DNA from: a virus
Taxonomy: Duplodnaviria; Heunggongvirae; Uroviricota; Caudoviricetes
DNA length: 9,206 nucleotides
Direction: 5' to 3' (one strand)
Virus record (IMG/VR): IMGVR_UViG_2534681940_000023
Coordinates: 1-9,206 of that record
The notes below the pieces were generated by a model that saw only the letters and a list, made by a program, of their open reading frames with translations, was not told where the DNA came from and ran no database searches. Of this stretch, positions 1-9,206 are shown one piece after another (positions within the stretch are counted from its first letter, which is position 1; every line of letters starts with the position of its first letter). The translations under genes were made by a program, and so were the position numbers.

Positions 1-108
1 AGGACACGCCCCTGCATAAACAGGGGCATCAGCTCTGAACCTGGCCTGAACAATACGATCCCCATACGCGGGGCAATTTCAGGGGTCAGTAGTGCTCTCA
101 CGGTCACC

Positions 109-918
109 TCAATGAACGGTATCGAGCAGCTTTAACAGCTCAGGGAATCGGGATTCGAAGAAATGCGGCTGCGTCTCGCGCGGATTTGCGGGACTGGTGA
201 TGTTCTTGCCGAACATGCAGCCTTTCGCTGTCAGCGACCAGAATTTTTTGATGTTGTTAATCGCGGTACGGCTGTATCGTTCGCGCTGCTCGACGATCCC
301 CAGCTTCACCATCTGGTGATATGCCTGATTAGCTGTCAGGCGGATACCATACTGCTTCAGCAGTGCACTCAGTGACAGCGTGGGACGGCTTGAGCCATCA
401 GGCGCGTCAGCAGGAGCATCAATGGCATAGCGCGGTGCCAGATTCGGTAAGCCAACAGCCTCCTGGAGTTTCTGACAGGCACCAAGCACTGAAGAGTTAG
501 ACAGGTTTAACTCCCGGCGCATAAAGTCCAGCAGAATCACGCCAGCCTGCATCTTGTCAGCAGCCTGCCCGGATAATTTTTCCGGTGCGCTGGTTACCAT
601 ATCGAAAGTACGGATCACCTTCAGATGGAATGACGGGCTGATCCACATTGCATAGGCATACACCAGTTCCTTGCAGACATACGTTCCCCGTTCATTTCCC
701 CCATGAATCACACTCACCGGGTCAACACCCAAATTCTGGGTGTTGGTCAATTCATGAACAAGCTCAGCAGTCTGTTGGCTGGAAAGAAACTTTCCTGGCT
801 CCTTGGTTCTGGCATTTGCACCAGATGCTACTGCTGCGCGATGCAGATCGTTCAGGCTGTAACGCCCATAAGCATCACGACGAACTTCAATACCATCAAT
901 GACCATCAGATTATTCAT
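109..918 (-). CDS. KilA-N domain protein (Bro/antirepressor-like), 269 aa; start moved to internal ATG at 918
   Basis: N-terminal region (GTYVCKELVYAYAMWISPSFHLKVIRTF) matches the KilA-N DNA-binding domain pattern. GAGGAG Shine-Dalgarno sits 7 nt upstream of the ATG at 918; the track ORF start at 1020 would overlap rusA and has no RBS. Confidence 0.8.
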   Translation of the reverse strand: MNNLMVIDGIEVRRDAYGRYSLNDLHRAAVASGANARTKEPGKFLSSQQTAELVHELTNTQNLGVDPVSVIHGGNERGTYVCKELVYAYAMWISPSFHLKVIRTFDMVTSAPEKLSGQAADKMQAGVILLDFMRRELNLSNSSVLGACQKLQEAVGLPNLAPRYAIDAPADAPDGSSRPTLSLSALLKQYGIRLTANQAYHQMVKLGIVEQRERYSRTAINNIKKFWSLTAKGCMFGKNITSPANPRETQPHFFESRFPELLKLLDTVH

Positions 919-937
919 ACTTCGTTTCTCCTCTTGA

Positions 938-1327
938 TCAGGCGGCTGCACCCGCCGTTTTCTCGTACTTACTGATAGTGATCTCGACCTTCCCTCCCGG
1001 GATAACCGGTCCCCACTCAACCAGCATTCTTTTCACCTGACTGTCGTCTTCCCACACACCCGCATGGGTCAGGGCGTCAAACAGCGCCTTGTTATAGTTG
1101 TCCAGATCGCGGATCCGGTTATCCGGCGGAAACAACACGATCTCCACTGAAGCAGGTGCCGACGTTGGTTTCGGCAGACGACGTAACTGCTCAACTATTG
1201 CTGCACACGCCGCGCTCTGGAATTTGCGCCCCGCCGCGCTTATCAGGCTCTTACCTGCAAACGCCCCTTTGTTGGGGTGTCGCCAGTACGTGTTCACGCT
1301 GGGCGGAAAAGGCAGGATCAGCTTCAT
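938..1327 (-). CDS. rusA: RusA Holliday-junction resolvase (crossover junction endodeoxyribonuclease)
   Basis: 129 aa; the RIRDLDNYNKALFDALT acidic motif and overall pattern fit the RusA family. Start ATG overlaps the upstream gene's stop as ATGA. Confidence 0.85.
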   Translation of the reverse strand: MKLILPFPPSVNTYWRHPNKGAFAGKSLISAAGRKFQSAACAAIVEQLRRLPKPTSAPASVEIVLFPPDNRIRDLDNYNKALFDALTHAGVWEDDSQVKRMLVEWGPVIPGGKVEITISKYEKTAGAAA

Positions 1328-1650
1328 ACTTTCAGGCCCCTCTCATGTAACCAGTGGGTTGCACGCAGCCTTGCGTTTTCCTCACCGGCAAGCAGTGCGC
1401 GGATAATCCCGACCGCCTCGCTGTCGTCGTCCTTCACCGCGGTATGAAGCGTTATCCCCCGGGCCACGCCACGCTTTATCGTGATGACGCCTTTTTTCTC
1501 CAGTGCGCGAAGATGCTCCACCGCTGCATTCACCGAACGGTATCCCAGCATGGTTGCCACCTCCTGATTGGTTGGCGGGAAGCCACGTTCTTTCTGATAA
1601 GAAATCAGCATATCCAACACCTGCTGCTGGCATTGAGTTAACGTCGTCAT
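1324..1650 (-). CDS. LexA-like N-terminal winged-helix DNA-binding protein (no peptidase domain)
   Basis: 108 aa; QQQVLDMLISYQKERGFPPTNQEVATMLGYRSVNAAVEHLRALEKKGVI resembles the LexA DNA-binding domain. ATGA overlap with the Dam gene stop. Confidence 0.6.
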   Translation of the reverse strand: MTTLTQCQQQVLDMLISYQKERGFPPTNQEVATMLGYRSVNAAVEHLRALEKKGVITIKRGVARGITLHTAVKDDDSEAVGIIRALLAGEENARLRATHWLHERGLKV

Positions 1651-2300
1651 GCCGCCATCTCCCTTACCAGTTTTTCTGCCTGCTGGCGAACCTGCGCCAG
1701 AAAGGCCTCACCACATGCCTCAAGTTCATCGCGCCCGATGTAGCTGATTGCCGGTCCCTTCCAGGTCTTGTCGAAAACAGCAATAGCACCAGCGAAGAAA
1801 GCGCCTGTCGGCACCTGCTTCTCATCCTTCGGGATAAACCAGGCAGGCAGTTCAAAACCAATACGCCCGCGAATAAAAGCAATATGATCTGCATCTTCCG
1901 GCCACCACACTTCGCTGGTGGCAGCTTTGATCAGGAAAACATAGCGCCCGCCTTTATCACGCATGGCACTGGCATGCTTCATGATGTAACGCATGCCGGT
2001 GATGTATTGCCCCTCATGCTGACTGGCGCGGCTGTATGGGGGATTACCAAAGGCAGCACCTTTAAGCTCCGCAAGACGTTCTGACCAGTCATGCGCCAGC
2101 GCGTTGTCTTCCGCCGTGTAATACGCGGCACATTTGGCGTTATCACCGTCAGTGAACAGATCCAGAACAAACGGACCAAACAAGGTGTTAATTCCCCAGA
2201 AAATGTTGTCCGGCGTGCGCCACTGATCGCCCACTTCCTTCAGTTCATGGGCTGGTTTGTTCCGCAGTTCTACCAGCGCCTGGCAATATTTATTACTCAT
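1647..2300 (-). CDS. Phage-type DNA N6-adenine methyltransferase (Dam family)
   Basis: 217 aa; NPPY catalytic motif (GNPPYS) and the FVLDLFTDGDNAKCAAYYTAEDNALAHDW region are typical of phage Dam methyltransferases. Confidence 0.8.
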   Translation of the reverse strand: MSNKYCQALVELRNKPAHELKEVGDQWRTPDNIFWGINTLFGPFVLDLFTDGDNAKCAAYYTAEDNALAHDWSERLAELKGAAFGNPPYSRASQHEGQYITGMRYIMKHASAMRDKGGRYVFLIKAATSEVWWPEDADHIAFIRGRIGFELPAWFIPKDEKQVPTGAFFAGAIAVFDKTWKGPAISYIGRDELEACGEAFLAQVRQQAEKLVREMAA

Positions 2301-2392
2301 TAAGCCCCCACGTAAAAAGCATCCGCAATGTCTCCGGAAGTACAGCCCGGATGGGCTTCAATGAATTTCTGAACGTCATTTAACAGACTCAT
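2300..2392 (-). CDS. Hypothetical small protein (30 aa, MSLLNDVQKFIEAHPGCTSGDIADAFYVGA)
   Basis: Not in the ORF track (too short). ATG at 2392 is preceded by a GGGGGTG SD-like sequence; its TAA stop overlaps the Dam ATG by 1 nt (TAATG). It exactly fills the gap between the O-like and Dam genes. Confidence 0.3.
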   Translation of the reverse strand: MSLLNDVQKFIEAHPGCTSGDIADAFYVGA

Positions 2393-2394
2393 GA

Positions 2395-3375
2395 TCACCC
2401 CCTGAATCCTGCCGGGATCTGGCTGTAGTCCACGTTGTCGTAACTGGCTTTGAAGTACGGGTCTTCACGTTTTTCTATGTGCGTGCTGACGGACGGCGAT
2501 AAGCGCAGGGAAAGCTCATCCCATTTTTCCCGCAACTTCGACGGGCTGAGCACGTTACGGCACCAGAACGGATCGCGGCTGACGCGGCTGTACATCTCGC
2601 AGATTTGTTTGTGAGTACGACCATCCTGCACACACATCAGGCGAATTTCGTTTGCCCATGCTGTCCAGTTCGGTTCTTTGGGACGAACCACCTCGCCGTC
2701 ACATTCGGCGGCCTGCTCGTACAGGGCGATGATTTTTTTCCAGAGCCACTGTGCGCAGGTCAAATCATCCTGCGTTCCCCACTGGCGCTTTTTAGGGCTG
2801 AATACAACCGCATCAGGATGGCGAGTTAAAAACTCCTGTTCAGCCGTTTGCGTGTCCGGTTGCGAAGCGTCCGGACGAGAAGAGGTTTTATTCTCTGTAG
2901 TAATCTCTGTTGTATTCTCTGTAAGATCGAAATTGGTTTTCCCTTCTCCGCGGCGAGGGGTTTCCCGTGTCCGCTGTGAAGGCTTTCCCTCCTCCGCGAA
3001 ATTGGGTTTTACAGTTTCCCGAAAACGGGTTTCCCCATTTCGGGAAAACTGATTGTTTTCATTGATAAGTTCATTAAGGCGCTCACAATCTATACGGTAG
3101 AACATTTTGTGCTCAAGACGCTTGTTGGTTTCAACCAAAATGCCTCTGGACACAAGATGCTTACGCGCTACAGCCTGTTGTTCAAATGTAAGTCCGGTTT
3201 CGTGTTGTATCTCTTCACGCGTTTTATGTACGCCTTCCGCTGCATGTGCTTTATCCTGCCAGTAAAAAATCTGACCAAAGAAAATAACAGCGTGCGGACT
3301 TCCCATGTATTTAACGAGCCCAGGGTAATAAGCAACCGGATGCCCAAAATCGAGCAGAAGATCAGACGGACGCAT
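2395..3375 (-). CDS. Replication initiation protein, O-like N-terminal region with DnaT-like C-terminal domain
   Basis: Central linker is encoded by iteron DNA, as in lambda O. The C-terminus ...YSQIPAGFRG resembles the C-terminal end of E. coli DnaT as I recall it. Likely start is ATG 3375 (GGGAGG SD 5 nt upstream); the track start at 3381 is GTG. Confidence 0.75.
   Translation of the reverse strand: MRPSDLLLDFGHPVAYYPGLVKYMGSPHAVIFFGQIFYWQDKAHAAEGVHKTREEIQHETGLTFEQQAVARKHLVSRGILVETNKRLEHKMFYRIDCERLNELINENNQFSRNGETRFRETVKPNFAEEGKPSQRTRETPRRGEGKTNFDLTENTTEITTENKTSSRPDASQPDTQTAEQEFLTRHPDAVVFSPKKRQWGTQDDLTCAQWLWKKIIALYEQAAECDGEVVRPKEPNWTAWANEIRLMCVQDGRTHKQICEMYSRVSRDPFWCRNVLSPSKLREKWDELSLRLSPSVSTHIEKREDPYFKASYDNVDYSQIPAGFRG
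2890..3050. repeat. Putative replication origin iterons inside the initiator gene
   Basis: Three 12-bp-period repeats with CTCTGT core (2893, 2905, 2917), then five ~23-bp-period repeats GG(G/C)TTTCCC..CCGCG starting 2935, 2957, 2981, 3004, 3027, including the palindrome CCCGAAAACGGG at 3018..3029. Confidence 0.6.
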
Positions 3376-3595
3376 AGCCACCTCCCAGACGCTTAAACAT
3401 TTTCCCGGACTGAAAAGCCACCAGCGGATAACTCAGGGTATGAGTACGCCCCTGAACCTGACAGACAACCTTCTGGCTTTCTGTGTTGACCAGACAAACC
3501 CGCAGAACGTGACCGTTGCTGGTGGTGAACCACTGCCCCACACGGGGGCAGTGGTTGTATCGGTGATACAGAGAATTCACAACACGACGAATCAT
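3362..3595 (-). CDS. Hypothetical protein (77 aa)
   Basis: ATG start overlaps the upstream stop as ATGA; its 3' end overlaps the O-like start. No recognisable family. Confidence 0.5.
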   Translation of the reverse strand: MIRRVVNSLYHRYNHCPRVGQWFTTSNGHVLRVCLVNTESQKVVCQVQGRTHTLSYPLVAFQSGKMFKRLGGGYASV

Positions 3596-3786
3596 GGACG
3601 CACCTCCGCCGTTGTGATGTATTTAACCGGGCTGCCTTTCATTGCGATGATTTCACACATCTCCGCTGCTTTACGTTCCGCTGTTTTCCTGGATTTATAG
3701 CGGCGGTGCCAAACAGACGTATCCGTGCGAACTGATACATCGTTTCTGTATTCCGTAGTGGAGATGATGATTTCGTAACTAATCAT
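3592..3786 (-). CDS. Hypothetical protein (64 aa)
   Basis: ATG start overlaps the Rha stop as ATGA (translational coupling). No recognisable family. Confidence 0.5.
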
Positions 3787-4346
3787 GGGCGTACCTCCTT
3801 GTCAGAACCATTCAGCCTGGAATCAACAAGTGCAGCACCAAAAACAGCATCACCTACACGGTCGTACAGTTTGCCAGCCAGCGGAGATTCAACAGCCTTA
3901 AGCATGGGATAAAGCTGGCTTCTCCAGATTTGATGGATTTCACGCAAATGCAGGTATACGCCTCTGGCGTTTTGTGCGACAGATGACATCTCAGCCGCAC
4001 CAGCTCCTGATAAGCTCCTCTCCATCTGGTTAAAGGCATTGATGTATGCCTCTTTGAACCGGGCGGCACGCTTGCCAGTGAAGCCCATAGCAAGGAATGC
4101 GAAGCCGTCGCGGGTGATTTGATAGCAGGGAAGTTTGCGAGTACCGCCGTTGGGCTGGCGTACCAAAATTGATGTCTCCGCAAAATTGCGGGCACAAAAC
4201 TCTGGAGAACAATCCAAAATGCGGATCTTTTTCAGAACATCGTCATGACGTTTAGAGAAGAAGTCAGCAACAGCCAAAGAAGATGTAACAGCCTGACCAT
4301 CAACGATGGCAATTTCAGGTTGAGAGAGAGTTGGGAAAGTAGTCAT
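3783..4346 (-). CDS. rha: Phage regulatory protein Rha (187 aa); C-terminal part of the 553-aa track ORF
   Basis: [32 protein letters not shown] is the Rha N-terminal domain signature, and it starts about 10 residues after the ATG at 4346, as in typical Rha proteins. AGGGG lies 9 nt upstream. Confidence 0.8.
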
Positions 4347-4638
4347 GGTGACAGCCCCTATGTTGAATTCAAAGAACTCACCACATGGGACGCCAATCAC
4401 AGAGGTGGTGAGACGTACAGGGTTGGCGTAACCGGTCAACATAGAACCCGGCGCATCTTGCGATGCCCCTGCACGCCCCACCATAATTTGGACGTAGCAA
4501 TGCTCATGATACGAAAAGACCGCATGAGCGCGGTTATGCTCTATATTGAATTCCAGGACGCCAATCCCGACACCCGCTTTATAAGGTGCCTGAACAGTGT
4601 AACGTCCCGAAATTGAGGAATCAATGTTTTGATAAAAT

Positions 4639-5031
4639 TCAGCGATTAGACGCTTCTTTTCTACCCATATTAACTTTGAACAAGAGCTCCATACGACGAG
4701 TCCAGACACCACGTTCTTTGAGTTGTGCTCTGGCTTCTTCGCGCTCAGATACGGAAGTTCTGACAATACGATTTCCAGCCAGATTGCGGCGATATTCTCC
4801 AAACGCGACTGACTGAAGGTATGCAGCGGAGCTTTTGTACTGATAGATGGCTCTTCGAAGGCTGTTTTTATATTCCTTAGGTATATGTCCGAGATCGGCA
4901 AAAAGCTCATGAACGATATCGTGAACAAGCGGAACAACTTTGTATGGAATAACAAAGAAGCTTTCTGGATAGCGTTCAGCCAATACTTTAATGATTTCTT
5001 TATTTGCAAGATGCCTTGCTTTTCTTCCCAT
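4639..5031 (-). CDS. ProQ/FinO-domain RNA-binding protein (130 aa)
   Basis: [17 protein letters not shown]...[18 protein letters not shown]...GNRIV...EEARAQLKE parallels the ProQ N-terminal FinO-like domain (KEVIAFLAERFP...LRSALRLYTSSWRYLYGV...EHARKQLEE, from memory). GGAG SD about 10 nt upstream of the ATG. Confidence 0.75.
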
Positions 5032-5091
5032 ATACCATTCTCCATTACTCCAGATATCAGAATGATATATCCAGGTTCAAGCAGTTCAAGC

Positions 5092-5444
5092 TTATGCTGG
5101 TGCTTCGCACTCAACAAAATCACGACGAAACAACCACAGCGGGCTGAAGCATTCATGCGGATAACCATCACGCAGGTAAATAACCCGCTGTGTTTCCGGT
5201 TCCCAACGAATGACTCTGACGGGCACTCCGTAGTGATCTTTGAACCAGCGGTTAACTTGTTGCAAAGGACTGTCTCCTTCTGCCGGTTGAAATCACCCAC
5301 AGCCCACTCTGCAAATCTGTGGGTTACAATTTCCCTGTCACCTGGTACATTCACTGCATAGCAATACTCCACCTTCGCTTTTCCACCCGGTACAGGAAGC
5401 GCAATCAGTTGCGAGCGACGGTAGTGTGTTGTTAAACTGTTCAT
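5092..5444 (-). pseudogene. Frameshifted gene of unknown function: N-terminal 50-60 aa in one frame, C-terminal 57 aa in the -1 frame
   Basis: ATG 5444 is ATGA-coupled to the upstream gene and encodes a protein-like [52 protein letters not shown], after which that frame turns low-complexity. The -1 frame from about 5292 to the TAA at 5092..5094 encodes [56 protein letters not shown]. Confidence 0.45.
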
Positions 5445-6082
5445 GCGTTAGTTTCTCCACAACCAGAAGCAATCGACGCCACGACGCCCGGAGCTGCACA
5501 CTCGCGGGCGTTACTCTTTTCCGGCGCACAAAAAACACGAAATAACAGTGTTAAATGCTCCTTCCACTTCGCCATTACTTGGTAGCTGTTCTCTTCGATT
5601 TGCTCACGCTCAGCCTGGTCAATAACTCCATCAGCAGTTGCCTTGCGTAAGTACTGGGAATGCTTGCCAATCCATTCTATTGACTCCATCAGCCGCTGAT
5701 TAATGTCACCATTGTCAATGTCATCAATGACCACCAGCGGCACAAACACCCCATTACTACGACGGGCTATTGCATCCGTTACATGCCTGGTACCACTGGC
5801 ATCCTGTAAAACCATGGCCCACTCAAGTGGAAAAATTTGATCCCCACCGCTACGCAGTCTGTTATGCAATTGATCTTTTGCTGGGGTGATATCATCAGAT
5901 TTATACAAACCAAGAATTTCTGCTGCTTCCTCATAGCCATGAGGTAAATCAGCAATCGTTCTTCGTATTGCTGCCACCAGCCATGCTGGTTGCTTATCAA
6001 CTTTCCATTCAGGTTCTTTACCCACGTTTAAGCCCTCATATCTGTGGTTTCTGTAAATCGATTTATCCATTAGATTTTTCAT
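5441..6082 (-). CDS. Phage regulatory protein in the CII/YdaT position (213 aa); function assignment tentative
   Basis: Sits immediately downstream of cro-like and upstream of the replication genes; the AAEILGL segment looks helix-turn-helix-like. Start taken at ATG 6082 (alternatives 6070 or the track's 6139, which would overlap cro by 77 nt). Confidence 0.5.
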
Positions 6083-6263
6083 AAAGCTCAGGTTTAAATG
6101 GCAACCGTCCGCAAGTTCTATATGCAGCCTCTGCTGCACGTCCTTTTGGAATTAACTGGCCAGGACGGTTTCGCCACTGATAAACGGCTTCAGTTGTTAT
6201 GCCGAAAAAAGCAGCAACTTTCTCAATGCTGCCGAAGTAGCTTTCGATATCGTCAGTCGTCAT
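6063..6263 (-). CDS. cro: Cro-like HTH transcriptional regulator (66 aa)
   Basis: Small HTH protein (SIEKVAAFFGITTEAVYQWRNR) divergent from the cI-like gene; GGAGGG SD upstream of ATG 6263. Confidence 0.75.
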   Translation of the reverse strand: MTTDDIESYFGSIEKVAAFFGITTEAVYQWRNRPGQLIPKGRAAEAAYRTCGRLPFKPELYEKSNG

Positions 6264-6360
6264 ATGCCCTCCAAACTAAGTTTTATTAGATGTTAATTAT
6301 CAATCTATCTTAGGTCAATAAAAACTAAGATTACTTAGTAATTAAAGAAATGGTGCTCCT
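6264..6360. promoter_or_regulatory. Divergent promoter/operator region (OR-like) between cro and cI
   Basis: AT-rich 97-bp intergenic region with two 16-bp operator-like sites, ACTAAGttttATTAGA (6275..6290) and the palindrome ACTAAGattaCTTAGT (6324..6339). Minus-strand TTGACC-17-TAACAT is a candidate PR. Confidence 0.6.
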
Positions 6361-6987
6361 ATGGAAACGGTTGGTCAGCGTATAAAAGCTCTGAGAAGAG
6401 TTACCAGAACGTCCCAGAAAGAATTGGGTAAATTTTGTGGAGTAAGTGACGTTGCTGTGGGGTACTGGGAGAAAGACATCAATGTCCCTGGTGGGGAAGC
6501 ACTTTCAAAATTAGCGAAGTTCTTCAATACGTCAATAGATTACATTCTTTATGGTGCGGAGTTTGAAGGCAAACTCGTCACAAACATGCGCAGAGTTCCT
6601 GTAATCTCGTGGGTTCAGGCTGGGCAGTTTACTGAGTGCAGGACAGCAGAAGTGTTTAGTGAAGTAGACAAGTGGGTAGATACATCATTAAAGATTGGTG
6701 ATAACTCATTTGCATTGGAGGTTAAAGGCGACTCCATGACTAACCCTAACGGCCTCCCAACAATACCAGAAGGCGCAACAGTGATTGTAGATCCTGATGC
6801 AGAACCCCGGCATGGAAAAATAGTCATCGCTAGACTTGATGGAACAAACGAAGCCACAGTAAAAAAATTAGTTATCGATGGCCCTCAAAAGTTTTTAGTG
6901 CCATTAAATCCCCGGTACCCCAACATTCCGATCAATGGTAATTGCCTCATCATTGGTGTAGTCAAAGGAGTTCAATACGAACTCTAG
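6361..6987 (+). CDS. cI-like prophage repressor, HTH N-terminal domain with S24 (LexA-like) autopeptidase C-terminal domain
   Basis: 208 aa; N-terminal HTH; Ala87-Gly88 candidate cleavage site (VQAG); Ser125 in GDSM and Lys168/169 (VKKL) match the S24 catalytic dyad. Confidence 0.9.
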   Translation: METVGQRIKALRRVTRTSQKELGKFCGVSDVAVGYWEKDINVPGGEALSKLAKFFNTSIDYILYGAEFEGKLVTNMRRVPVISWVQAGQFTECRTAEVFSEVDKWVDTSLKIGDNSFALEVKGDSMTNPNGLPTIPEGATVIVDPDAEPRHGKIVIARLDGTNEATVKKLVIDGPQKFLVPLNPRYPNIPINGNCLIIGVVKGVQYEL

Positions 6988-7004
6988 CCCCCCTTTTCTC
7001 TAAC

Positions 7005-7075
7005 CAAAACACCGAACTAAGAAAAGTTTGGTGTTTTCTCTTGCCATCAAAACTAAGTTAAGTTAGATTTTATAT
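7005..7075 (+). promoter_or_regulatory. OL/PL-like operator-promoter region downstream of cI
   Basis: Two more ACTAAG-N4-NTTNGN sites (7016..7031, 7052..7067). Candidate promoter TTGCCA (7041..7046), 17-nt spacer, TAGATT (7064..7069), overlapped by the second site. 8-bp inverted repeat AAAACACC/GGTGTTTT (7005..7012, 7029..7036). Confidence 0.5.
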
Positions 7076-7164
7076 CAAAGATAACGAACAGGCAGGACGC
7101 CCACGAAGTAGCCGACGGTGGCGTATGAATGACCGGATGATTCGCGCATGGCAGGAGAGTGAAT

Positions 7165-7533
7165 ATGGATGGCAGTATCGACAACCAACGAGATGCCTGG
7201 CTTGTGGTGATTGAAGCAGCAAAAACTGCATTAAGCCAAGTTGAAAGCAGTAACTACAGAACAGTTAAACAAATGGCTTTGGGCTCTATTATCTATGCCT
7301 TTGAAAGGCTGGACTTTGATTTTGAAGCAACGAGTATTCTGTCAGAACAACATGAAAAAATGAATAGAGAAGACGCCGCAGCCTATATCGGCGTAGAAGC
7401 GCAAACCTTAGCTAATTGGGCTAGCACAGGAAAAGTTCGAATACCTTTTTTAAAAATCGGTAGAAAGGTTATTTACCTAAAAAGTGATCTTGATGCCTAT
7501 CTTGCCTCATCGAAGGCAAATACCACCAAGTAG
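7165..7533 (+). CDS. HTH (AlpA/excisionase-like HTH_17-type) DNA-binding protein, 122 aa; first gene of the leftward-type early operon
   Basis: C-terminal REDAAAYIGVEAQTLANWASTGKVRIPFLKIGRKVIYLKSDLDAYL resembles an AlpA/Xis-type HTH. AGGAGA SD 6 nt upstream of ATG 7165 (the track start at 7159 is GTG). Confidence 0.6.
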   Translation: MDGSIDNQRDAWLVVIEAAKTALSQVESSNYRTVKQMALGSIIYAFERLDFDFEATSILSEQHEKMNREDAAAYIGVEAQTLANWASTGKVRIPFLKIGRKVIYLKSDLDAYLASSKANTTK

Positions 7534-7739
7534 CTCACGTACCTACCACCTCGCCTGATGTGGCTAAAAGCAGGCACATAACAGCTAAGTATTTTCAACC
7601 AGAGAGAATCCTTAGCGTTGTGGTGAATGCGGCTCAGCGCACGCGGGTTAAGGTTGAGACTGACAGTCGACCTTCTGTGGATACCCACCCGCCTGGTGTG
7701 CAACCTTCGCCAGGCACCGGGAGGCACCCGGCACCACAA

Positions 7740-7799
7740 CAGCCACTGCTTTGGCGGTACCAGTTTGTACACTTGCTTCCGGCTGGTACCGCTCTTTTT
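7740..7799 (+). ncRNA. dicF: DicF-like small RNA (candidate)
   Basis: GCTTTGGCGGTACCAGTTTGTAC... closely resembles the core of E. coli DicF (GTTTGGCGGTATCAGTTTTAC..., from memory) and ends in an intrinsic terminator. The 5' end is not determinable from sequence. Confidence 0.45.
7754..7799 (+). terminator. Rho-independent terminator of the DicF-like sRNA
   Basis: 10-bp GC-rich stem GCGGTACCAG (7754..7763) pairing with CTGGTACCGC (7783..7792), 19-nt loop, then TCTTTTT (7793..7799). Confidence 0.6.
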
Positions 7800-7888
7800 A
7801 CAAAACAGAGAAGAGCATCACCGGACGACGGGCTCATAACCCAATCCACCCGGGCGGCTGCCACCGCAGGTGCTCTTCTCTGTTTTGT
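7800..7888 (+). repeat. 18-bp perfect inverted repeat (ACAAAACAGAGAAGAGCA / TGCTCTTCTCTGTTTTGT) with 53-nt spacer; candidate long RNA hairpin
   Basis: Left arm 7800..7817 is the exact reverse complement of right arm 7871..7888. The stem can extend with G-U pairs into the terminator U-tract. It lies 35-50 nt upstream of the RBS of the next gene. Confidence 0.8.
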
Positions 7889-7936
7889 GGAGAAACCAAC
7901 CGACCTTGCAGGGTCGATATGATGAGGAGCAGCAAA

Positions 7937-8299
7937 ATGGCTAGCGAACGCAGTACTGATGTGCAGGCATTTATCGGGGAGCTGGACGGCGGCGTATTTG
8001 AAACCAAAATCGGCGCTGTTCTCAGTGAAGTCGCTTCAGGTGTGATGAACACGAAAACCAAAGGGAAGGTCTCGCTCAACCTGGAAATCGAACCGTTTGA
8101 TGAGAACCGTGTGAAAATAAAACACAAACTCTCATATGTTCGTCCGACTAACCGCGGGAAAATTTCCGAAGAAGACACCACCGAAACGCCGATGTATGTC
8201 AATCGCGGTGGTCGCCTGACTATTCTGCAGGAAGACCAGGGACAATTACTGACTCTTGCCGGTGAACCTGACGGAAAACTCCGCGCAGCAGGTCATTAA
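7937..8299 (+). CDS. Hypothetical protein, 120 aa (YfdP-like, by size and context)
   Basis: GAGGAG SD 7 nt upstream of ATG 7937; the track ORF start at 7751 runs through the sRNA and hairpin and is rejected. Identity with CPS-53 prophage YfdP is from recollection of size and gene order only. Confidence 0.6.
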   Translation: MASERSTDVQAFIGELDGGVFETKIGAVLSEVASGVMNTKTKGKVSLNLEIEPFDENRVKIKHKLSYVRPTNRGKISEEDTTETPMYVNRGGRLTILQEDQGQLLTLAGEPDGKLRAAGH

Positions 8300-8364
8300 T
8301 ATCGTTCTTAATTAACTGATTATTTATCTCATCACTGAATATCCTTATATAGTGAGGACTTATT

Positions 8365-9189
8365 ATGTCTCAGAACTTAGACGCAACCGCAATTAATCAA
8401 ATCCATGCCCTTATTTCTGCTCAGGGTGTTAATGAAATTATTAGTAAGATTGGTGCCGATGCTGTGGCATTGCCTGAGAATTTCCGCATTCATGATCTGG
8501 AAAAATTTAATTTAAATCGCTTCCGTTTCCGTGGTGCGCTTTCCACTGCCAGCATCGATGACTTTACCCGTTATTCTAAAGATCTTGCAGATGAAGGCAC
8601 CCGCTGCTTTATCGATGCCGATAATATGCGTGCCGTCAGTGTGCTTAACCTGGGTACTATTGATGAACCAGGTCACGCAGATAACACCGCCACTCTCAAA
8701 CTGAAAAAGACAGCACCGTTCTCTGCTCTGTTGTCTGTTAATGGCGAGCGTAACTCCCAAAAGTCACTGGCAGAATGGATTGAAGACTGGGCCGACTACC
8801 TTGTGGGCTTTGATGCTAATGGTGACGCCATTCAGGCAACCAAAGCGGCTGCGGCGATCCGTAAAATCACAATTGAAGCGAACCAGACCGCTGATTTTGA
8901 AGACAATGACTTCAGCGGCAAACGCTCCCTGATGGAGTCTGTCGAAGCGAAGACCAAAGACATTATGCCAGTGGCATTTGAATTTAAATGCGTTCCGTTT
9001 GAAGGCCTGAAAGAACGTCCGTTTAAATTACGCCTCAGCATTATCACTGGCGATCGTCCTGTACTGGTTCTGCGCATTATTCAGCTGGAAGCGGTGCAGG
9101 AAGAAATGGCTAACGAATTTCGTGATCTGCTTGTTGAGAAATTTAAAGACAGCAAAGTAGAAACCTTTATTGGTACTTTCACCGCCTGA
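8365..9189 (+). CDS. Hypothetical protein, 274 aa (YfdQ-like, DUF2303-type, by size and context)
   Basis: GTGAGGA SD upstream of ATG 8365; clean protein-like 274-aa ORF. Identity with CPS-53 prophage YfdQ is from recollection of size and gene order only. Confidence 0.7.
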
Positions 9190-9206
9190 TTTCATTACTG
9201 CAAATG

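Follow-up and report, generated by a model that had tools for sequence, protein, structure and literature searches.

A probable replication origin of 23-bp iterons and 12-mers within the O-like initiator gene of a lambdoid prophage

The replication origin of phage lambda, oriLambda, lies inside the initiator gene O and consists of four 18-bp iterons and a 38-bp AT-rich tract (PMC3349717; PMC7466680). Together with the six-iteron origins of the Shiga toxin (Stx) phages 933W and P27 it is the system closest to an element found in a 9,206-nucleotide stretch of Caudoviricetes DNA (IMG/VR record IMGVR_UViG_2534681940_000023, positions 1 to 9,206; in the following, the window). An O-like replication initiator gene on the minus strand of this window contains five 23-bp dyad-symmetric iterons, followed by a half unit and three 12-mers. 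We consider it likely that this segment, 2887-3049, is the replication origin of the prophage, located inside its own initiator gene as in lambda. The origin interpretation is supported by comparison, not by experiment.

The gene and its parts were assigned as follows; bit scores refer to the position weight matrix (PWM) described below.

2395 to 3381, minus strand: O-like replication initiator gene, 328 amino acids (aa), stop codon included, taken from the open reading frame (ORF) list
3052 to 3381, minus strand: coding region of the N-terminal domain, residues 1-110, a predicted winged helix and the presumed iteron-binding domain
3027 to 3049, minus strand: iteron 1, GTTTTCCCGAAATGGGGAAACCC, 28.9 bits
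3004 to 3026, minus strand: iteron 2, GTTTTCGGGAAACTGTAAAACCC, 20.8 bits
2981 to 3003, minus strand: iteron 3, AATTTCGCGGAGGAGGGAAAGCC, 23.6 bits
2958 to 2980, minus strand: iteron 4, TTCACAGCGGACACGGGAAACCC, 16.7 bits, the most degenerate unit
2935 to 2957, minus strand: iteron 5, CTCGCCGCGGAGAAGGGAAAACC, 23.0 bits
2923 to 2934, minus strand: terminal half iteron AATTTCGATCTT, with the left half-site TTCG kept and GATC at 2925-2928
2887 to 2922, minus strand: three 12-mers, ACAGAGAATACA, ACAGAGATTACT and ACAGAGAATAAA, 31% GC, presumed unwinding element
2506 to 2904, minus strand: region homologous to the lambda O C-terminal domain, residues 160-292 versus lambda 150-270
2398 to 2424, minus strand: C-terminal tail SQIPAGFRG, the last nine residues of the initiator

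The original prediction had placed the repeats in the middle of an O-like gene, and they do lie there, between the two domains encoded by the minus-strand ORF at 2395-3381. The 328-aa protein matched PHROG 391/9773, "replication initiation O-like", with E-values of 6e-82 and 1e-68. When the entire protein and its two halves were compared with Pfam and NCBIfam, nothing matched at E-values up to 10, and a PDB sequence search returned a single chance-level match. By BLASTP, the C-terminal part alone aligned with lambda O (35% identity, E 1e-25). An AlphaFold2 model, built from an input alignment of 20 sequences, comprised a confident N-domain (residues about 15-110) and a confident, folded helical C-domain (residues 176-297) with a predicted local distance difference test score (pLDDT) of about 87-97; residues 111-175 were predicted to be disordered (pLDDT 24-36). 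This disordered stretch is exactly what the iterons and 12-mers encode, the iterons and half unit (2923-3049) accounting for residues about 111-153. The linker peptide quoted in the original prediction corresponds to residues 116-166 and falls within it. The top Foldseek matches of the model were all generic winged-helix proteins; they support the fold class only, a winged helix being predicted for the N-domain.

The architecture is that of oriLambda. In both cases the origin, known or presumed, occupies the middle of the initiator gene, with the DNA-binding domain encoded on its N-terminal side and the recruitment domain on its C-terminal side. The repeats are dyad-symmetric in both, and the AT-rich tract after them measures 38 bp in lambda and 36 bp here. 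Both genes are transcribed from the early promoter on the cro side. The AT-rich tract of low duplex stability follows the array directly in the direction of transcription. The lambda iterons, four of 18 bp, start 20, 24 and 23 bp apart, whereas the five iterons described here are spaced strictly by 23 bp and are unrelated to them in sequence. Furthermore, the AT-rich tract is a sequence-conserved 12-mer repeat here and a simple A-rich run in lambda. A lambda arrangement with a distinct iteron sequence had been claimed in the original prediction; this held for the layout, the C-domain, the AT-rich tract and the unrelated iterons, but not for the N-domain, which has no detectable sequence relation to Pfam PF04492 (Phage_rep_O), nor for a P-like gene, which does not follow. 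Membership in the lambda O family is thus given for the C-domain and not for the N-domain.

Both the fivefold 23-bp repeat and its dyad symmetry, as originally proposed, were recovered. The consensus unit is an 18-bp dyad, CC-N3-TTCGCGAA-N3-GG (half-sites CC-N3-TTCG and CGAA-N3-GG), followed by a 5-bp A-tract, and the dyad CCCGAAAACGGG is present at 3018-3029. A PWM was trained on 40 units from relatives, excluding the window and its close kin. It detected exactly five minus-strand sites (16.7-28.9 bits) and, inside the array, a few weaker overlapping or antisense matches; outside the array nothing exceeded 8 bits on either strand, including the promoter regions of the window. The self-alignment suggested as a check was carried out: the period-23 self-match of 2935-3053 was 0.646, a value reached by none of 5000 dinucleotide shuffles (mean 0.351, maximum 0.477), and it represents the strongest periodicity in the entire 9.2-kb window. 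Tandem Repeats Finder reported 2.7 copies of the 23-bp unit (2938-2998), and a second repeat search found three copies plus degenerate ones. Six of the 13 TTTCCC/GGGAAA hexamers of the window are located inside 2938-3047. The half unit AATTTCGATCTT joins the array to the 12-mers; most of the listed lineages have an equivalent element (TTCGATC or TTCGTTAA) directly next to the 12-mers.

Conservation was analysed in 109 fetched loci encoding N-domain relatives with 47-98% identity from Enterobacterales, Burkholderiales, Pasteurellales and Arsenophonus. A protein search with the N-domain only yielded 16 mostly truncated proteins, whose only use was to seed the locus scans. For 62 of the 64 distinct loci, the DNA from the N-domain end to the first 12-mer matched itself best at a period of exactly 23 bp, and the arrays comprised 1 to about 10 units. 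As 23 cannot be divided by three, the frame changes from one unit to the next; all three frames are used, and the encoded peptides differ. The consensus ntntTCGcGAAnnnGGgAAAcCC was identical for units in frames 0, 1 and 2; therefore, the constraint acts on the DNA. A central TTCG..GAA-like core recurs across lineages, and the outer arms and the right half vary with the lineage, being GGGAAACCC in E. coli and Serratia, TGCGGAAAGCGC in Burkholderia, CCATCTC/GAGATGG in Paraburkholderia and ACATTC/GAATGT in Pasteurellaceae. The N-domain family comprises 3714 cluster representatives (50% identity) at E ≤ 1e-3 and has no Pfam model. A 77-aa ORF located upstream was considered as iteron binder and rejected; it is limited to the lineage with 96-99% identity and absent from 58 loci of the 47-84% lineages, including lineages with GGGAAA-type iterons. 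The N-domain is thus the sole protein always linked to the iterons.

Some of the relatives showed peculiarities of their own. Two loci (L079 and L081) carry a 1-nt deletion in the iteron zone which breaks the reading frame, and three proteins (P0006, P0007 and P0010) appear frame-shifted past the repeats. The initiator module of Candidatus Arsenophonus triatominarum (L021-L031) was found with a 244-aa C-terminal module on at least 10 separate contigs of one genome, which suggests that this bacterium carries many copies of one prophage-like element.

The 12-bp repeat had been predicted in three copies, and three units of the type TACAGAGATTAC are indeed present, reading from 2922 to 2887. Their self-match at period 12 was 0.79, which 2 of 5000 dinucleotide shuffles reached at any period from 6 to 17. 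Tandem Repeats Finder called 2892-2923 (period 12, 2.7 copies, 85% matches), and the second search three copies at 2889-2924. This zone is the least stable segment of 30-50 bp in the gene, with a nearest-neighbour free energy of -44.6 kcal/mol per 40 bp versus a window mean of -54.9 (standard deviation 4.2); it occupies the place of the AT-rich region of lambda and aligns with it. The motif ACAGAGATTAC is kept from E. coli to Burkholderia, and its form in Pasteurellaceae is ACACTAGATTAC. The GC content at third codon positions (GC3) of the 12-mers is 0.25 in every lineage, versus 0.68-0.90 for the N-domain in Burkholderiales; A/T-ending codons are retained in the 12-mers even in GC-rich hosts. 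In Pasteurellaceae, the units of this zone are 13 bp apart and thus read in different frames. Furthermore, the density of the motif in the linker was 485-fold above that elsewhere in 72 loci. Motif conservation, low GC3, the differing frames in Pasteurellaceae and this density point to a constraint on the 12-mers at the DNA level, as judged from sequence comparison. We read the 12-mers as the unwinding element, which would also serve as a homology patch for the exchange of modules.

Copy numbers of the 12-mer vary, with five in L092 and L054, four in L064 and most Stx-type loci, three in the window and one in L019 and L016. Relatives from Aggregatibacter and Haemophilus carry four copies of a further, separate tandem repeat of 9 bp, TACCCCCCT, right after the 13-bp-spaced units (in L029 at offsets of about 137-172 past the N-domain, in L018 similarly).

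The initiator gene is a chimera. Its N-domain, iterons and 12-mers are of the Stx phage type "Eru7", with 96.7% identity over 2889-3607 by megablast; its C-domain is of the mEp460/SfIV/CPS-53 YfdO type. The stretch 2315-2928 is 99% identical to the type represented by mEp460_4F5 and by L112, an E. coli prophage, and 97-98% identical to SfIV, SfII and mEp460. The two parental types overlap in one segment:

2889 to 2928: recombination joint, 40 bp common to both parental types, consisting of the 12-mers and GATC

The crossover that built the gene falls within the 12-mer zone. Four N-domain classes, each with its own repeat type, were found on the same C-domain, that of the window and the following three.

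L112 (third class, P0032-type N-domain): six 23-bp units GGTCAAAaTG; 12-mers identical to those of the window
L113 (P0029-type N-domain): seven 23-bp units GCAAAC.AGAATGCGG; variant copies of the 12-mers
SfIV (HTH_36 N-domain): 15-bp units CCGTCAAAATCTGAC; no 12-mers

In these mosaic relatives the repeats travel with the N-domain and not with the C-domain. The 12-mers occur with three different N-domain classes and are common to at least three initiator specificity classes across prophages of Beta- and Gammaproteobacteria. The cassette of N-domain, iterons and 12-mers, in turn, is joined to at least eight unrelated C-terminal modules; the ORFs downstream differ among these module types and are longer than here, some of them appearing helicase- or loader-like by eye. 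Records of the exact protein (P0017) exist for 107 E. coli contigs.

Among 5426 complete RefSeq E. coli genomes there is none in which at least 80% of the gene is present as a single piece, nor is there such a phage record. Taken separately, both halves of the gene are very common, with matches to some part of it or more in 3571 of these genomes. In L112 and SfIV, the O-like gene is separated from dam by a PerC-family gene of about 495 bp, which the window lacks; about 395 bp are missing at window position 2315, and a 4-codon remnant of the PerC gene, ATGAGTCTGTTAA, overlaps the stop codon of the O-like gene.

The phages related to either half were compared with the window as well. The initiators of SfIV, SfII, mEp460 and the YfdO type of CPS-53 in E. 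coli K-12 share the C-terminal half (97-98% DNA identity) and carry repeats at the same position of the gene; like the initiator of the window, they are "solo" initiators, with neither a helicase gene nor a loader gene after them. They differ by a Pfam HTH_36 N-domain, a 15-bp period (CCGTCAAAATCTGAC) and the lack of 12-mers. The "Eru7" Stx phages (LC567818, LC567819) share the N-domain, five iterons and 12-mers with 97-99% identity, and also the Rha/Ash gene upstream. They have four to five copies of the 12-mer and an unrelated C-domain, which is followed by two genes annotated as "DNA helicase" and "replication protein". The RepA_N initiators of Gram-positive plasmids, SPP1 G38P and the DnaD-like replisome organisers show no sequence similarity and differ in hosts, C-domains and repeat architectures; the O-like protein belongs to neither the RepA_N nor the DnaD family of Pfam. 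Text searches of the literature for the iteron, the 12-mer sequence or this type of origin returned no relevant description. The locus looks like a familiar origin design with a different DNA-binding domain and different sites, not like a new mechanism, and the features that stand out and are worth following up are the conserved 12-mer and the arrangement without P.

The O-like gene belongs to a lambdoid early-right operon, with cI located at 6361-6987 on the plus strand. Counted from cI, the order is cro, a CII/YmfL-like gene, the Rha/Ash gene, two small ORFs and the O-like gene; downstream, genes for a Dam methyltransferase, a protein with a LexA DNA-binding domain, RusA and a KilA-N protein follow. 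By analogy with lambda (PMC7466680, PMC3349717), initiator binding, melting, helicase recruitment and the start of replication would all take place at 2887-3049. Dimers of the winged-helix N-domain would bind the five 23-bp iterons, and one further subunit the terminal half-site. The resulting nucleoprotein complex would strain the adjacent 36-bp stretch of 12-mers and lead to its melting, upon which the lambda-O-type C-domain may bring in the host helicase. Neither the ORFs of the window nor Pfam revealed a P, DnaC or DnaB gene after the O-like gene; hence, recruitment would have to be direct or to involve a host factor. As in lambda, transcription that starts rightward at the promoter on the cro side would pass through the origin.

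The C-terminal tail SQIPAGFRG of the initiator, in which it also differs from lambda O, deserves mention here. Eight of the nine residues are the same as at the C-terminal end of E. coli DnaT. This tail is a lead, not evidence, for a partner in helicase recruitment, and it is probably the reason that relatives are called "primosomal protein I" by some pipelines. Homology to DnaT (primosomal protein I) was rejected, as the last nine residues alone match, and no DnaT chain appeared in the PDB sequence search at E ≤ 1. A preprimosome paper of 2026 contained no information on the SQIPAGFRG tail. Several relatives with the same C-domain have other ends (GWENTL, GWRDVL). We put forward, as a doubtful but possible extension, that the 12-mer TACAGAGATTAC is a sequence-specific origin element and that solo O proteins load DnaB-DnaC directly, without P, via the tail shared with DnaT. 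The 12-mer could then act as a site for single-strand binding or helicase loading, like DnaA-trios or the 13-mers of oriC.

Several observations weigh against the origin interpretation or parts of it. Iterons 2 and 4 are degenerate and the dyads imperfect; no DnaA box or IHF core was found near the array; and Foldseek gave no match against the PDB at E ≤ 0.001. The gene directly downstream encodes a Dam methyltransferase and not a P-like helicase loader or helicase, so that no neighbouring gene offers a partner for the step after melting. Moreover, the replication proteins of the "Eru7" Stx phages were reported as unknown (PMC8044961, PMC8951638). With its 36 bp the 12-mer zone is short, its AT content is no more than moderate (31% GC), and several intergenic stretches of the window are less stable. 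In Enterobacterales and Burkholderiales the 12-mers are always in frame as T-E-I/N-T, and a TEIT-type peptide, T[EK][ITNS]T, occurs in the linker of 90 of the 134 best family representatives; the TEITTE peptide might thus have a role at the protein level. This last point feeds the idea that the 12-mers are not an unwinding element at all but a boundary sequence promoting exchange of N- and C-modules, or a functional peptide (TEITTENK). The crossover that built the gene lies inside the 12-mers, and junctions are found before them in some phages and after them in others. We nevertheless consider this idea unlikely: A/T-ending codons persist in hosts with a GC3 of 0.7-0.9, the 13-bp-spaced copies of Pasteurellaceae are read as TLDY and then YTRLH with the DNA motif kept, the peptide falls in a segment predicted to be disordered, and no zone of the gene is less stable than this one, which aligns with the AT-rich region of lambda. 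Roles in recombination and in unwinding are, besides, compatible.

Whether the iterons themselves mark an origin can also be questioned. They could be initiator-binding sites that serve regulation (autoregulation, titration, handcuffing or exclusion of related phages), with the true origin elsewhere in the phage, of which only 9.2 kb are visible. Plasmid iterons have such double roles, and cloned lambda iterons alone inhibit lambda replication (PMC3349717). The layout, however, equals oriLambda in the position of iterons, AT-rich zone and lambda-type C-domain, the least stable segment of the gene directly abuts the array, and no further site above 8 bits occurs in the window, promoter regions included; regulation would add to a role as origin and not replace it. 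We consider a purely regulatory array distinctly improbable. A function of the dyads at the mRNA level, by a structure that would control how the initiator transcript is translated or degraded, appears very improbable to us. The sense-strand RNA of 2880-3060 does fold with z = -4.46 relative to shuffles, but a strong fold is expected from any array of palindromes, no Rfam family matches the region, and no T-run follows the sense-strand hairpins. Furthermore, units within a lineage keep the sequence of their half-sites and not merely complementarity, which points to recognition of duplex DNA by a protein. A terminator-like hairpin was called at 3030-3047, though on the antisense strand; reading the dyads as a terminator or attenuator was rejected, as this was a single call on the antisense strand at chance frequency. 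Least credible of all is that the repeats arose by replication slippage as a by-product of a low-complexity linker, with no function at the DNA level. The encoded segment is indeed compositionally biased and predicted to be disordered (pLDDT 24-36), and 12-mer copies vary from one to five among relatives. Against this stand a period that is not a multiple of three, the exact register in 62 of 64 loci across Beta- and Gammaproteobacteria, the dyad symmetry of the units and the change of repeat sequence with the N-domain class; the same DNA consensus in three frames with different peptides already largely refutes a slippage origin.

Other features of the window were noted beside the initiator gene. 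Rfam identified a C4 antisense RNA (80 bits) at 4401-4488 and the Hfq-binding small RNA (sRNA) isrK (54 bits) at 4513-4589, both on the minus strand and just upstream of the Rha/Ash gene, an arrangement that resembles the P1 immI-like c4/antirepressor control module. Given these two RNA genes, a 553-aa ORF at 3783-5444 is a read-through artefact, and the real Rha/Ash gene spans about 3783-4658. An ORF of 130 aa that encodes a ProQ/FinO RNA-chaperone domain (Pfam E 1e-13; 4639-5031, minus strand) adjoins the two sRNA genes and lies in a different frame from the spurious 553-aa ORF. The 108-aa protein encoded at 1324-1650 on the minus strand is made up of a LexA DNA-binding domain alone (Pfam E 3e-19) and lacks an S24 peptidase domain; its gene lies between dam and rusA, and the same order was found in L112 and L113.

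Replication of Stx phages is tied to toxin production on induction. Among European Stx phages, Eru7 is reportedly the replication type with the widest distribution, and its replication proteins are described as uncharacterised (PMC8951638). The prediction of an origin together with its initiator-binding sites makes replication of these phages directly testable. Beyond them, a large N-domain family lacking a Pfam model appears to share one design, 23-bp dyad iterons with conserved 12-mers, and its members provide natural swaps of specificity in which the reading of iterons by winged-helix initiators can be studied. The locus furthermore offers a clear case in which a presumed origin element doubles as a crossover point for the exchange of modules.

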